Counted from the first letter of the stretch, positions 5,851 to 53,495 are shown. The stretch is 64,000 nt of DNA from an uncultured Cellvibrionaceae bacterium (GCA_965650515.1 CBFGOY010000001.1:59289-123288), one strand, 5' to 3'. Made by a program: numbers and translations. The notes: generated from the sequence alone by a model not told the origin.

Positions 5851-5880
5851 AAGCAAAACGGGAAAGCTTTCGCTTTCCCG
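5851..5880 (-). terminator. Intrinsic terminator of the CrcZ-like sRNA
   Basis: Minus strand CGGGAAAGC-GAAA-GCTTTCCCG-TTTTGCTT: perfect 9-bp stem, GNRA loop, U tract. Confidence 0.88.
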
Positions 5881-6069
5881 CTGGAGGGTAGCACCAAGGT
5901 GCTGCAAATTGGCATCTCAATGGGTGCCTCCATGGCAAACATCCAATCTCGCGTGCTATCCCATCCTGTGCCTAGTCAGTAGTCCGCTTTATTTTACTGT
6001 CTTATTGCTCTTGTCTTCTAGCGTGGTCAATCTAAGTTATTGTTTTCGTTATTGTTATATATGTTCTGT

Positions 6070-6245
6070 TGTTATTATTTCTTGTTGTTATGTTTAATCT
6101 TTCAGTTTCTTATTGTTTGTTGTTGTTATGTATTTGCTTCAGTTTCTTATTGTCTATTGTTGTTATTTTAAAATTGATCAGTTTCTTATTATTTGTTGTT
6201 GTTATTAGATTGGGTAAGCTAATTCTTATTATTTGTTTTTGTTAT
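6070..6245 (-). repeat. About five degenerate tandem A-rich units, consensus ATAACAACAACAAA(T/C)AATAAGAAACTGA, period ~37-41 nt
   Basis: The core tcagtttcttatt occurs exactly at + strand 6102-6114, 6139-6151 and 6178-6190, with degenerate copies near 6221-6245 and 6070-6091. Confidence 0.85.
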
Positions 6246-6256
6246 GGCCGACATAG

Positions 6257-6272
6257 AGCATCTCTTGTGCCA
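6257..6272 (-). promoter_or_regulatory. Sigma54 (-24/-12) promoter of the CrcZ-like sRNA
   Basis: TGGCAC-AAGAG-ATGCT against consensus TGGCAC-N5-TTGC; GG/GC spacing is correct. Confidence 0.85.
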
Positions 6273-6291
6273 CTTTTAGAAATCCTAATAA

Positions 6292-6304
6292 TAACAATTG
6301 CTTA
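6292..6304 (+). promoter_or_regulatory. Possible IHF site between UAS and sigma54 promoter
   Basis: TAACAATTGCTTA has one mismatch to WATCAANNNNTTR; the region is AT-rich, so a chance match is possible. Confidence 0.3.
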
Positions 6305-6368
6305 TGTTTTTTGAGGCGGTGTTTATTTCTTTTTGTTATTTCGAACAGTTACAGAATGGTAGCGAGTT

Positions 6369-6395
6369 TGTTACGGGTGGGTAGAGAAAGTAACA
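6369..6395. promoter_or_regulatory. CbrB-type upstream activator palindrome TGTTAC-N15-GTAACA
   Basis: Perfect inverted 6-mers ~100-120 bp upstream of the -24 box, with extra GTAAC/GTTAC half-sites near 6348, 6407 and 6428. Matches TGTTAC/GTAACA half-sites described for Pseudomonas crcZ. Confidence 0.75.
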
Positions 6396-6486
6396 GTTTT
6401 TTTACGGTAACACCCTTGTGGTTAGGGGTAACGGTTTGTCGTTAAAATTGGTATTTGTGGCGTATTTATTAATAAACGTGTCGCTA

Positions 6487-6525
6487 AAAGTAAAAATCCC
6501 CGCTGCTTTACACATAACGGGGATT
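6487..6525 (-). terminator. Probable terminator downstream of cbrB
   Basis: Minus strand AATCCCCG-15 nt-CGGGGATT followed by TTTACTTTT. Confidence 0.6.
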
Positions 6526-6552
6526 CTTCTGGGTGCGAAAAGTAAAAAGGAA

Positions 6553-7962
6553 TTATTTGGCGCTTGTCGCCGAGGCAGAGGCCTTGGTACGGGGAATACC
6601 AAGCCGCTGACGGCGTTCCCACAGGCACTTGCGACTCACACCGAGTTTACGCGCCAGTTCGGTTTCGCTCATGGTGTCCTGGTGTTCAAGGACGAAGCGT
6701 TGGAAATAATCTTCCAGTGACAGGTCTTCGCCAACGTCCTGCCTGCTGCTCCGGCCAGCCAGGCGCGGGGCTTCAATTAATGAGCTGCCGGTGTTGTCAT
6801 CCAAATCAAGGGCTTCCATATCAATCGAAAGCAAATGGTCGCCAATTTCGTTGGCGTCTTCACACAGGATTACCGCGCGTTGCATGGCATTTTCCAATTC
6901 CCGGACATTCCCTGGCCAGTTATAGCTCATGATGGTATCTATCGCGGAGGAGGACAGTTTTAGTTGCGGTTTGCCGAACTGGCCGCAGTAACGCTGCAAC
7001 AGTGATTCGGCAATGTTGATGATGTCGCGGCCGCGCTCACGTAATGGCGGCAATTCCAGTTGGACGACATTGATACGGAAATACAGGTCTTCGCGGAACT
7101 TGCCTTCTTTGGCCAATTTGCGCAGGTCGCGATGGGTAGCCGCCACAAGGCGTACGTCGACTTTGCGTGACTCTACCGAACCGAGGGGACGGACCTCTCC
7201 TTCCTGCAATACGCGCAACAGGCGCGCTTGTGCTTCCAGGGGTAATTCGCCGATTTCATCGAGGAACAGGGTTCCGCCATCCGCTGCCGCCACGAGGCCT
7301 TCGCGGTTATTGGCGGCACCGGTAAATGCCCCTTTTTCATAACCGAAAAGTTCGGATTCAATCAAGGTATCGGGAATGGCGGCACAGTTAACCGAGATCA
7401 TCAGGTGATTGTTGCGGTTGCTTTCTTCGTGCAGGGCGCGCGCCACCAGTTCTTTACCGGTTCCGGTCTCCCCGTGGATAAGCACGGTGGCATTGGTTGG
7501 GGCAACCTTATGGATGCGATTATAAAGGTCTTGCATGACATCGCTCGAACCAATCATACCGGCAATTGCACTGCTGGCGGCCTGGCTGGATGCCGCTGCT
7601 TTACTCGCGGCCTTGGCTTTACCGATGACGCGTTTGACGGCGTTGACCATTTCATCGTGGTCAAATGGCTTGGCGATATAGTCCACCGCACCCATGCGCA
7701 TGGAATCGACTGCCGAACGTAAACTGGCGTAACTGGTCATGATCAGTACCGGCGTATCCCCCGCCAGTTTGATCAGGTCTGTACCAGGGGCGCCGGGCAG
7801 GCGGAGGTCACTGATGATCAGGTCAAAATCCTTGAGCTGGAATTTGGATGTCGCCTCTTTGACAGATGGGGCCTCGCTGACCTCGTACTGGTTGCGCTCT
7901 AGCAGCTTGCGCAGGGCGTTACGGATGATGGTTTCGTCTTCAACAATCAGAATCTTACTCAT
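6553..7962 (-). CDS. cbrB: Sigma54-dependent response regulator CbrB (NtrC family)
   Basis: Receiver ([11 protein letters not shown]), AAA+ ([32 protein letters not shown]), and CbrB-type C-terminal HTH ([43 protein letters not shown]). Confidence 0.93.
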
Positions 7963-8036
7963 AGCTATCCGGGTCTTGCGTGTTAATGTTTACTGGTGTG
8001 GCCCGGGGCATTGCCGCACGGGTCGCGAGTTTTCTG

Positions 8037-11003
8037 TCAGGCGTCCATGAATGCATCAAGATGACGCGGCAGCGTTATCACAAATCTGGCGCCGCGATTA
8101 TGAACCGGATCGGCGGGGCTAATAATATCCATATGGCCGCTGTGGTCTTCAATAATGCTGTAAACCATTGCCAGGCCCAAACCTGTGCCTTCACCGGGTT
8201 CCTTTGTGGTAAAGAAGGGTTCCAGGATGCGCTCGATCAGCTCCGGGGGGATACCGTGCCCCTCGTCGGTAACAGAAACTGTTACCGAATCCTCATCTTC
8301 GTTACTTTCAAGCATAACACGCCCTTGCTCCGGGCTGGCATCCCGCGCATTAGATAAAAGATTTATAAAAACCTGGATAATGCGTTGCGCGTCACCGGCA
8401 ATGATGGCCGTTTTAGGGATGTCATTGCAAAACAGCACCTGGTTTTTATCTTTTTGCAGTGACAGGAGATGGATTGCTTCATTGGCGCAGTCACGAATGG
8501 AAACAGCCTCGAATTCGGATTTACTGGCGTGACCGGCATGGGAAAAGCTGACCAATGACTGCACAATTCGCCCGACCCTATCCGTCTGGCTAAGGATCTG
8601 TTCCGCAGTTTCCAATATTTCCGGATCTTCGGAATCATATTTAAGGTTTTGCGCGAGGCAGGCGATGCCAGTAATCGGATTGCCGATTTCATGGGCGACG
8701 CCCGCCGCCAGGCGGCCCACTGAGGCGAGGCGTTCTGAATGCACCAGCTCCTGTTCCAGCAATTGGGTTTCAGTGACATCTTCCAGCAGCATGACCTGGT
8801 CATATACCCCCGCGGTGATTGGTCCTTCAATGTTGGCTTTATGCAGGCTGATCCAATGGGGGCCGTTATTCAACTCGATCTCTCGCCGGTAGAAATGGGG
8901 TTCTTTGCTTTGGCTGAAATCAATTAACAGGCTGCACCAGGGTTCGGGGATATCTTCGAGGTAGGAGCCGGTCACATCTTCCGTAGGAATGCGGGTCAGG
9001 TTCGCCATGGCGCGGTTCCACATCAATACCTCCATATCGCGGCCCAGCGAGCAGACCGCCATAGGCAATTCTTCCAGTGTCTTGCGATGGTAAAGGCGCA
9101 GGGTATTAAGCTCTGCCGCCATGCCGGTGAGGTGATCTCGGTATTCCGACAGGCGGTTTTCGATCAGGTTGATATCCACTGTGCTCTGGGTTTCGGCGAT
9201 AACGTGGGGGATGTATTTATCCATGATTTCACTGGCCACATGGATACCCATCAGGCTGGAAAGGTTGCCTTCAATCTGGTCGCGCAGGCGGCGCAGGGCG
9301 TAGGGGCGGCGCTCGTCGATGGTGAGATTGAGTTCCTGGAGCGCGATATCCACTTCGCGGCTCGCTGTTACCTTGCCCAGGGGTTTAGCGAGGCGATGCT
9401 TGAATTCCGATGCGGAGTGAACATCCAGTGCCTGGCGTACCGGATGGCTGAGTTCATCCGCCGCACAAAGCTCGGCACTGTATTGCTCATCCTCTGTCTG
9501 CCGGGTACACAATGAAATCACCACGAAGAAGAAGGTATTGAGGCCAAGAGAAATGAGCGTGACCTGGCTCCAGTATTCAATACCAACGGGAATTCTCAGT
9601 TCACCCAGGGGTAGCTGGAGATATTCGATACCGGTCAGGATCGGTAGCAATAAGCCAAGGGCCCAAATGCTGGTACCGACGGACAGGCCGGTAATGAGGC
9701 CGCGTTTGTTGCCCCGGCTCCAAAACACAATGGCGAATGTGGCGGGAAGGAATTGCAGGGTTTCGATAAACGCGGTCATTGCCAGGTGGGCGAGGCTGAA
9801 ACGGTTGTCCAAGACCCAGTAGAACACATAACCGCCGGCGAAGATGGCGGCGATCAGCACCCGTCGCAACCAGATCAATTGGCTGTAGAGATCGGTCCGG
9901 GTGCGCAGCTTGAGGCTGGGCAATAACCAATGGTTCATCACCATGGTTGAGAGGGCGAGGGAAATAATCACCATGGCCCCGGTTGCGGCTGAAAGCCCAC
10001 CCAGGAACGCCAGCAAGGTTAGCCCTGGTGAATCGAACAGGATGGGAACACCCAGCGAATAGTATTGTGGCGGTAAAGGGACCGACAGTTCGGTGCCCGC
10101 CCACAGGATCGGGAAAATCGGCAGTGCCATTAACAACAGGAACAGCGGGAAGGCCCAGGTTACTGTATGGGAGTTACGCATCAGCGGGTTTTCCGCCAAT
10201 CCCAGATGGAAGATATGCGGCATGGTTACCGCGGTGGAGACAAACACCAGTAACAGCGTATGTGCGGAATCGGTATGAATAGGGGTATGCAGGAGTGCAA
10301 GGTTTTCAGGGTGGTCGAGCAGCCATTGGTCGAGGCCGTCCAAACCATCGAATACCCCATAAACCGCTACCAGGCCAACCGCGCAAAGGGCGCAAACCTT
10401 TAACAATGACTCAAATGCCATCGCCGTAATCAGCCCGCGATGCTGGTCGCGGTTGGCGCCGAAAGAAATGGTAAAAAACGCCAATATCGCGCAGTAACAA
10501 AGGGCCATTACATCTTTAAAGGTCAGTCCGGTTCCGGCGAGGGGTAACGAAGGGTTACTGCTGACGGTAAGGATATGCATGGTATCGGCAATCGCCTGGA
10601 TTTGCAGGGCGAGCAACGGCAAGATCCCGCATAGCATACAAAGTGTTGTGAGCGCGCCCACGCTGTGGCTGTGGTAGCGGAATACCAGCAAATCGGCCAA
10701 TGAATGTACCTGGTGGCGCCGCGCCAATTCGGCCAGCGGTGCCAGGGCAACGGGTGCGAACAGGAAGAGTGCGCCGGTGCCAAGGTAATACGCCAGGGCG
10801 CCATAGCCATACTGGAACGCAAGGTCGATGACCCCGTAGAAGGCCCAGGCGCTGGCAAAAATCCCAAGGGACAAAATATAGGTAATGGGATGGGATGTTA
10901 CTGATTCGGGAATCCAGCCGCGCTCGGTAATCCAGGCGATACCAAACAATAGCAACAGGTAACCGATTCCGAGGAGTGCAACTTGGCTGAGGTCAAAAGT
11001 CAT
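8037..11003 (-). CDS. cbrA: SLC5-transporter-fused sensor histidine kinase CbrA
   Basis: ~13 TM SSF-like N-terminus, linker/STAC-like region, PAS (VLMWNRAM), H-box [32 protein letters not shown]. Confidence 0.93.
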
Positions 11004-11042
11004 TATGCGTTCTTATTTACCGTGGAGGTTTGCCTTACGGGT

Positions 11043-11225
11043 TCAATCAATGTCGTGGTACTTCTTGCGCCGCAACTGGATCGCAAACGCAATTCCGATC
11101 ACCAGGATCCATGCAATATAAGGCCGATACCAGGCACCTTCAGGGTTGATAATCCAGTTAAACAGGCTGGGAGAAAAAATATAGGCAATCAGCAACAGTA
11201 ATATGACCAGGCGTTGATTGTTCAT
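11043..11225 (-). CDS. cbrX: CbrX-like 60-aa membrane peptide
   Basis: MNNQRLVILLLLIAYIFSPSLFNWIINPEGAWYRPYIAWILVIGIAFAIQLRRKKYHDID; two hydrophobic segments and the GAWYRPY motif I recall from Pseudomonas CbrX; directly upstream of cbrA. Confidence 0.85.
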   Translation of the reverse strand: MNNQRLVILLLLIAYIFSPSLFNWIINPEGAWYRPYIAWILVIGIAFAIQLRRKKYHDID

Positions 11226-46271: not shown

Positions 46272-46348
<77 letters not shown>

Positions 46349-53075: not shown

Positions 53076-53225
53076 TGATTGGTACCGTCTTTACCTCACC
53101 GAGTGATCGGCAGGGTAAAAAGGCGCGCTGACTTCCCCCCTTGGCGGAAAAGCAGTGCAACAACCCACCTGTAAATATGCACGGGTGGGCTGTAATTTTT
53201 TGGCATATTAATTGAGGAAAATATC

Positions 53226-53495
53226 ATGGCACTGAGTGCTCAAGAAAAAGCTGCAATCGTTAAAGAGTACCAACAAGCGGAAGGCGACACCGGCTCGCCA
53301 GAGGTTCAAGTTGCTCTGTTGACTGTAAACATCAATAAGCTGCAAGGCCACTTCGCTGACCACAAGGCTGACCACCACTCACGTCGCGGTTTGATCCGTA
53401 TGGTTAACTCCCGTCGTAAGCTGTTGGACTACCTGAAAGGTAAAGACTCTTCACGCTATACTGCACTGATCCAAAAATTGGGTCTGCGTCGTTAA
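53226..53495 (+). CDS. rpsO: 30S ribosomal protein S15
   Basis: [35 protein letters not shown]. Confidence 0.99.

Follow-up and report, generated by a model that had tools for sequence, protein, structure and literature searches.

This report concerns a gene cassette on a 64,000-nucleotide (nt) stretch of DNA from an uncultured Cellvibrionaceae bacterium (GCA_965650515.1 CBFGOY010000001.1:59289-123288), which as a whole will be called the window. Positions 5,851 to 11,225 of the window carry, in the order cbrX-cbrA-cbrB-small RNA (sRNA), the parts of a putative Cbr carbon-control system: a membrane peptide, a sensor kinase, a sigma54 activator, an enhancer with a sigma54 promoter, and an A-rich RNA resembling CrcZ of Pseudomonas; pcnB is the next gene (Table 1). 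The original prediction, made from the sequence alone, had listed the elements from the peptide to the RNA in the Pseudomonas order, and all were found, without exception on the minus strand. In Pseudomonas the order is cbrX-cbrA-cbrB-crcZ-pcnB. As far as crcZ, the order is borne out by a review (PMC8871633). The gene identities, the geometry of enhancer and promoter, the discrete transcript, the presence of crc, hfq and rpoN in the genome and the conservation across the family were observed in this work, and we are fairly confident that the locus is a complete and functional orthologue of the Pseudomonas CbrXAB-CrcZ module.

Judged by its CbrB, the 4.38-Mb genome is that of a Cellvibrio. CbrB is 96% identical to its counterpart in Cellvibrio mixtus J3-8, 86% to that of a Cellvibrio metagenome-assembled genome (MAG), 71-81% to those of Marinimicrobium, Gilvimarinus, Simiduia and Microbulbifer, and 64-67% to those of many Pseudomonas. 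The Cellvibrio-like lineage that had been proposed earlier agrees with this result.

Table 1. Features of the cbr locus (window coordinates) and the crc gene (contig coordinates). aa, amino acids; ORF, open reading frame; HTH, helix-turn-helix
Feature	Position	Strand	Description
cbrX	11225-11043	(-)	60-aa ORF, two-helix membrane peptide with GAWYRPY motif
cbrX-cbrA spacer	11042-11004	(-)	39 nt, carries AAUAAGAA at 11017-11010, shortly 5' of the cbrA AUG
cbrA	11003-8037	(-)	988 aa, putative SLC5-STAC-PAS-HisKA-HATPase transceptor histidine kinase
cbrB	7962-6553	(-)	469 aa, NtrC-family sigma54 activator (REC, AAA+, HTH)
Hairpin and U-run directly 3' of the cbrB stop	6525-6492	(-)	candidate weak terminator, by sequence reading
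CbrB-type enhancer	6432-6348	(-)	GTTAC/GTAAC half-sites, positions -122, -102 and -80 relative to the sigma54 box
sigma54 promoter	6272-6257	(-)	TGGCAC-N5-ATGCT, pattern match
CrcZ-like sRNA	~6246-5855	(-)	~390 nt from the inferred start near 6246 to the terminator, A-rich
Intrinsic terminator of the sRNA	5882-5857	(-)	11-bp stem, GAAA loop, U-run; terminator scan
pcnB (poly(A) polymerase I)	5714-4332	(-)	460-aa ORF; NCBIfam TIGR01942, 554.7 bits
crc	C17:88195-88938 (= L005:1405-2151 (-))		runs off the contig end

The Cbr proteins and the enhancer

CbrX is a two-helix peptide of about 58 aa whose gene precedes cbrA. The cbrX peptide matched chain X (CbrX) of the cryo-electron microscopy entry of P. 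putida CbrXA, 10ed, with 54.5 bits (E 6e-14), and cbrX is kept upstream of cbrA in all Cellvibrionaceae and Pseudomonas loci examined. Residues 1-600 of CbrA matched chain 10ed_A (P. putida SLC5-STAC) with 559 bits, the SLC5 part being approximately 50% identical to that of P. putida CbrA. In the C-terminal part the Pfam domains HisKA and HATPase_c scored above their cut-offs, and PAS_4 gave a weak match (20 bits vs a cut-off of 23.1). The histidine pocket of P. putida CbrA is lined by Y51, S53, W55, A56, F71, Y75, K196, F248 and F406 (PMC13488458). As read by hand from the alignment with 10ed_A, seven of these nine residues (S53, W55, A56, Y75, K196, F248 and F406), including the Na2-site lysine, are identical in the Cellvibrio protein; Y51 is replaced by F and F71 by A.

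Structure prediction of the CbrX-CbrA complex gave an ipSAE of 0.62, compared with 0.00 for the best of three controls; in calibration, 55 of 80 solved complexes and 3 of 110 mismatched pairs attained the mark used. In the model CbrX is predicted to dock on CbrA residues 67-81, 228-251 and 279-297. This appears to be in keeping with the published description of a site formed by transmembrane helices TM3 and TM8 and the TM6/7 loop. For a family with a solved complex, passing the mark in a predicted model shows likeness and not binding.

CbrB contains the Pfam domains Response_reg, Sigma54_activat and AAA_lid_14, followed by a C-terminal HTH, and its alignment with Pseudomonas CbrB spans the full length (residues 1-467), at 65-67% identity. 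The HTH differs from that of Pseudomonas in only one or two positions. Its best NCBIfam match was the generic NtrC model, below the cut-off of that model, and NCBIfam has no model for CbrA, CbrB or CbrX, thus the naming of the family rests on PDB entries and synteny.

The P. putida CbrB subsites are F1 (TGTTAC), R1 (GTAACA) and R2 (GTAAC-), with a spacing of 12-16 nt (PMC6296734). The enhancer described here has half-sites that correspond to them: TGTTAC at 6412-6407 and 6395-6390, GTAACA at 6374-6369 and GTAAC at 6352-6348, all on the minus strand, those at 6412-6407 and at 6432-6428 (-) being additional to the core three. In 25 loci the distances were measured, with the first base of the sigma54 box as reference, and they placed the half-sites at -122/-123, -101/-104 and -80/-82 in four Pseudomonas-type loci and in 15 of the 17 Cellvibrionaceae loci; in the other two Cellvibrionaceae loci one half-site is shifted or inverted, and loci of the Porticoccaceae, Endobugula and Pontibacterium type have kept the pattern only in part. 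The three-subsite pattern together with a sigma54 box occurs a single time in the genome, at the cbrB locus, and rpoN was also found. The geometry of the subsites, the HTH, the uniqueness of the pattern in the genome and the presence of rpoN make a strong case that the entire regulatory module is orthologous to that of Pseudomonas.

In nearly all non-Pseudomonas loci examined a sigma54 box and then an A-rich cluster follow downstream of cbrB. In one Cellvibrio MAG (locus L010:5392-6700) cbrB is directly followed by unrelated sequence, which by eye is perhaps coding on the opposite strand, and no A-rich RNA was found within 1300 nt after cbrB; this locus may have undergone an insertion or rearrangement. 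The hairpin that follows the cbrB stop in our genome has an 8-bp stem and a 15-nt loop and is followed by a T-run. It is possible that it is a weak terminator, which was not called by the terminator scan because its loop exceeds the limit of the scan.

The A-rich RNA

The gap between cbrB and pcnB (about 6400-5950) has a G+C content of 30-37% and a strong excess of A on the minus strand. The sRNA consists of a 5' part of about 235 nt, 57% of which is A, and of a conserved, G+C-richer 3' domain of about 150 nt. The 5' part contains six bipartite pairs of (AAN)n tracts, 12 non-overlapping tracts in all, and in each pair a tract of 8-14 nt is followed, after a gap of 2 nt (five pairs) or 4 nt (the last pair), by an 8-nt tract. 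Four of the pairs have AAUAAGAA as this second tract, and the remaining pairs have AAUAACAA or AACAAUAA. The length of a pair is about 20-24 nt, and the unit AAUAAGAAACUGA is present in three exact copies. With 25 matches to AAnAAnAA the 400-nt stretch 5956-6355 is the maximum of the genome, the next unrelated stretch having nine; the 5' 235 nt contain 22 overlapping matches, compared with 7.8 +/- 3.4 in composition-matched shuffles.

No reading frame longer than 43 codons was found in the sRNA. In the predicted fold the A-rich half is almost unpaired and the 3' part of about 150 nt is structured (z-score -3.6). When the 3' domain was analysed with RNAalifold, in 12 sequences drawn from three genera, support was limited to the terminator and a single short helix, and the analysis yielded no confident structure. 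Within the 3' domain (5990-5855) two blocks, AGCGGA and a GGAU/GGGA-rich stretch, are common to the three genera, and so is a third, ACUGACUAGGCAC, except in two Cellvibrio genomes. A candidate for a second sponge RNA, located outside the window at C1:161601-162200 (+), was rejected: this stretch, second in the genome for AAnAAnAA motifs with nine of them, reads by eye as small coding ORFs rich in Lys/Glu, and no sigma54-type promoter was found there. The sRNA is single-copy, no second locus of comparable motif density being present in the genome.

Contigs matching the sRNA were found in three public RNA runs. They cover 5853-6223 with zero mismatches in run X5, 5862-6228 in run X7 and 5959-6228 in run X15, a metatranscriptome. 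The contigs are 270-398 nt long, are confined to 5853-6228 and stop at the intrinsic terminator. Over the 3' end of cbrB, the enhancer and the 5' end of pcnB, all in the same 1-kb stretch, the depth in these runs is zero. Confinement to the sRNA between silent flanks points to a discrete, abundant transcript, with the reservation that the depth of contigs does not quantify expression; the silent flanks also serve as an internal control against carry-over of DNA. The sRNA is real and is transcribed as a discrete RNA. In a fourth run, labelled as probably DNA, contigs of a related strain span the whole stretch.

A BLASTN search found the sRNA in 77 of 100 other Cellvibrionaceae genomes, representing 41 of 50 genera (a count that includes its own genus). 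In an alignment of four Cellvibrio genomes the columns are on average 88% identical; there is hardly any variation in the A-rich tracts and the 3' domain, and much more in the spacers between the tracts. Between genera the stem of the terminator is 90-94% identical; Marinimicrobium and Marinagarivorans show compensatory changes in it, from A-U to G-C.

It could be argued that the A-rich stretch is not an RNA gene of its own, and that it serves pcnB as a leader or regulatory region or is an AT-rich spacer. It does share the strand of pcnB and lies immediately 5' of that gene, and one of the RNA contigs has an A-rich extension past the terminator. Against this, the contigs end at a strong 11-bp terminator and the 5' end of pcnB has no coverage, the stretch has its own sigma54 promoter and enhancer, and it is conserved in most of the genera searched. 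We regard this explanation as very improbable. The extension itself, in the contig of run X5, consists of 27 non-templated letters, A-rich in the RNA sense, at position 5853. It may reflect polyadenylation (pcnB is the next gene), capture of the A-rich RNA by oligo-dT, or an assembly chimera.

In Pseudomonas, CrcZ (known from P. aeruginosa and P. putida) has the paralogues CrcY and CrcX, and Azotobacter vinelandii has CrcZ and CrcY; the A-rich tracts of Pseudomonas CrcZ are scattered among stem-loops. The Cellvibrio RNA resembles the Pseudomonas and Azotobacter CrcZ RNAs in its position between cbrB and pcnB, in its sigma54 promoter and the CbrB subsites at equal distances from it, in its length of around 400 nt, in its multiple AAnAAnAA motifs and intrinsic terminator, and in the presence of crc and hfq in the genome. 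It differs from them in escaping the Rfam model, in having a distinct conserved 3' domain, in being single-copy, and in its A-rich tracts, which form six regular bipartite units packed into a 5' half with almost no structure. A common core with Pseudomonas CrcZ (ACUGAYU ... GGAGRGGG..GC) was considered and set aside: it was found in only seven Cellvibrionaceae and two Pseudomonas loci, with no occurrence elsewhere in 1.46 Mb of loci, and this is too little to prove homology to CrcZ.

Crc, Hfq and the putative sponge

The genome has seven exonuclease-fold genes, of which the one located where contig C17 ends is the Crc orthologue; because the gene is cut by the contig end, about 11 N-terminal residues are missing. 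The protein scored 244 bits against P. aeruginosa Crc (4jg3; the protein is also present in the Hfq-Crc-RNA entries 6o1k-m) and 187 bits against 4b5h, the best clearly lower chain deposited as an exonuclease. The score against 2myi, deposited as exodeoxyribonuclease III, was 233 bits, thus deposited names alone do not separate Crc from the exonucleases. The RNA contacts of P. aeruginosa Crc (K135, R138, K139, R140, R141, E142 and R196) and the residues of its interfaces were described by Pei et al. (PMC6422490). In the Cellvibrio protein the RNA-binding patch K135, R138, K139, R140, R141 and E142 is kept in full, and R196 is replaced by K. Orthologues of Crc with 62-97% identity are present in 96 of 100 Cellvibrionaceae genomes. 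Hfq has an Sm-like core with a distal face of the Pseudomonas type; this core is identical to that of P. aeruginosa Hfq (1u1s) at 67 of 72 residues (138 bits), and hfq lies upstream of an hflX-like gene. The original prediction had proposed to look for crc and hfq elsewhere in the genome and had made its case dependent on the former; both genes are there, so on this point it holds.

By analogy with Pseudomonas the circuit would work as follows. CbrA would be a transceptor kinase of the histidine SLC5 type with CbrX bound to it, and would phosphorylate CbrB. CbrB would then bind the three GTTAC/GTAAC subsites located approximately 80-122 bp upstream of the sigma54 promoter and activate this promoter, which would drive synthesis of the non-coding RNA of about 390 nt. 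The Hfq distal face has a binding mode for ARN repeats (PMC8121710). One tract pair appears long enough to occupy all six tripartite pockets of such a face, and the unstructured A-rich 5' part would therefore offer about six bipartite sites, each filling the distal face of one Hfq hexamer. When the carbon source is poor, the RNA would titrate Hfq and Hfq/Crc off A-rich sites at the starts of target mRNAs and so lift the repression of their translation. Phosphotransfer, the dependence of the promoter on CbrB, the binding of Hfq/Crc by the RNA and the identity of the targets are the steps that we infer by homology; on this footing, action of the sRNA as an Hfq/Crc sponge seems quite likely.

It is also conceivable that the sRNA is no Crc-assisted sponge and acts through Hfq alone, or that it base-pairs with other RNAs through its 3' domain. 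The roughly 150 nt of 3' sequence conserved in three genera would be superfluous in a sponge made of A-rich sites only, and at the Crc-Crc interface neither R229 nor R230 is kept. On the other hand, the RNA-binding patch of Crc is kept, Crc is a core gene of the family, and no feature of the sRNA is better conserved than its six bipartite A-rich sites. We consider such a mode of action improbable.

Several observations weigh against a CbrXAB-CrcZ orthologue whose RNA is an Hfq/Crc sponge. First, the Rfam CrcZ model (RF01675) had no match in the window, either at the gathering score or at E <= 10, thus sequence homology of the sRNA to CrcZ is not demonstrated. Second, the Logan contigs carry no strand information, and the transcribed strand was deduced from the promoter and the terminator; the contigs also fail to reach the predicted start of the sRNA, by about 20 nt. 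Third, in the Crc-Crc interface, read by hand from the alignment, R229 is replaced by G and R230 by P. Fourth, in Pseudomonas the stop codon of cbrX overlaps the start of cbrA, which couples their translation (PMC6591292), and the two genes overlap in Pseudomonas and in most other Cellvibrionaceae genera examined; in four Cellvibrio genomes they are separated by 39 (this genome), 51, 80 and 80 nt, without overlap. Finally, the enrichment of the A-rich motif at likely targets, described below, is weak and suggestive only.

Some of these points need further comment. The Rfam CrcZ model recognized none of 14 non-Pseudomonas loci, the Pseudomonas control scoring 309 bits; the model is shown to be too narrow to annotate the Cellvibrionaceae RNAs. 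Rfam matches in the window were limited to a tRNA at 46272-46345 (+) and a ribosomal S15 leader at 53161-53282 (+). Two further interface residues of Crc are changed, E193 to K and R233 to E, possibly a charge swap. Compared with P. putida CbrXA, the Cellvibrio system is alike in domain architecture, the CbrX peptide, most pocket residues, the Na2-site lysine and the HTH of CbrB, and it is different in the 39-80 nt between cbrX and cbrA, in the pocket substitutions Y51F and F71A, and in the SLC5 identity of only about 50%. In all four Cellvibrio genomes the sequence AUAAGAA lies 8-12 nt before the cbrA AUG, at the usual position of a Shine-Dalgarno sequence. It could be an Hfq/Crc site exerting feedback on the kinase, or merely an unusual ribosome-binding site. 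The sRNA is best read as a diverged positional orthologue of CrcZ acting as an Hfq/Crc sponge.

Targets, distribution and significance

The original prediction went further and suggested that the circuit controls the mRNAs of carbohydrate utilization. Motif counts at gene starts were made on crude gene calls (longest non-overlapping ORFs, with starts chosen by a simple Shine-Dalgarno score). In the interval from -45 to +12, AAnAAnAA is present in the sense orientation in 246 genes and in the antisense orientation in 173 (binomial p 4e-4), and the control regions gave sense/antisense counts of 178/190 and 181/186 in upstream windows, and 120/137 and 104/120 within genes. For longer A-rich tracts the gene starts show no enrichment (17 sense vs 24 antisense). 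Bacterial start sites in general tend to have A-rich leaders, which favour translation. The motif is present in 6 of 37 genes of TonB-dependent receptors, compared with 320 of 3515 genes overall (p 0.11, not significant), and in 7 of 42 genes in a sample of carbohydrate-active enzymes (CAZymes; CBM2, GH43, GH5 and GH3; p 0.08, not significant). Pooling of the two classes gave 13 of 79, with an odds ratio of 2.0 and a one-sided p of 0.024. Three large receptors have AACAAUAA 27-38 nt before the start codon. The count at CAZyme and receptor genes, which had been proposed as a check, is compatible with the suggestion, significance being reached by the pooled set and by neither class alone; the roughly two-fold pooled enrichment is marginal, and control of carbohydrate-use mRNAs is weakly supported and not established.

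A different regulon is a real possibility, which we would place somewhat short of an even chance: the cassette may be genuine and govern the catabolism of amino acids and organic acids and the nitrogen balance, as in Pseudomonas, and not polysaccharide enzymes and TonB receptors. This would suit a CbrA whose histidine pocket is largely kept, including the Na2-site lysine, an enrichment at CAZyme and receptor genes that is only about two-fold and marginal, and the absence of enrichment of long A-rich tracts at gene starts. The significance of the pooled set and the tracts in front of the three large receptors argue in the other direction, and the crude gene starts would weaken any target signal.

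According to a review from 2022, CbrAB is unique to the Pseudomonadaceae, with synteny given only for Pseudomonas and Azotobacter (PMC8871633), and evolutionary arguments have been built on this restriction (PMC8871633, PMC6296734). The remark in the original prediction that Cbr/Crc catabolite repression is described mainly in Pseudomonas and Azotobacter agrees with this literature (PMC8871633); a literature search found no paper in which Cellvibrio or a relative of it is connected with CbrB, CrcZ or Crc/Hfq. Our genome searches gave another picture. In a sample of 400 other genomes of the order (this genome excluded), 290 have full-length CbrA, with most of the 58 families sampled represented, and 12 of 12 Cellvibrionaceae genomes have it; among the matches listed its identity is 43-58% over about 980 residues. 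This distribution, together with that of Crc in the Cellvibrionaceae, contradicts the statement that the system is unique to the Pseudomonadaceae. Cellvibrio was placed in the Pseudomonadaceae by older manuals; the NCBI taxonomy assigns it to the Cellvibrionaceae, order Cellvibrionales. None of the other genera compared (Marinimicrobium, Gilvimarinus, Simiduia and Microbulbifer) is known to belong to the Pseudomonadaceae.

A wider interpretation can be offered only tentatively, and we think it rather more doubtful than probable. The Cbr-CrcZ-Hfq/Crc circuit may be ancestral to most of the order and not an invention of the Pseudomonadaceae, and in Cellvibrio it may act as a master switch between preferred small substrates and the costly degradation of polysaccharides. 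What would be particular to the lineage is an RNA family, absent from Rfam, of six bipartite units each of the size of an Hfq hexamer, and a feedback through AUAAGAA placing CbrA under the control of Hfq/Crc.

A whole circuit, consisting of peptide, kinase, activator, enhancer geometry, RNA, Crc and Hfq, is found here in a cellulolytic soil genus, and its protein parts are near-universal in the Cellvibrionaceae and common across the order, which corrects a statement on the uniqueness of CbrAB repeated in the literature. Cellvibrio japonicus is a genetically tractable model of plant-cell-wall degradation. If the proposed role in polysaccharide degradation is true, the catabolite-repression switch would be a handle for understanding or engineering the timing of CAZyme production.

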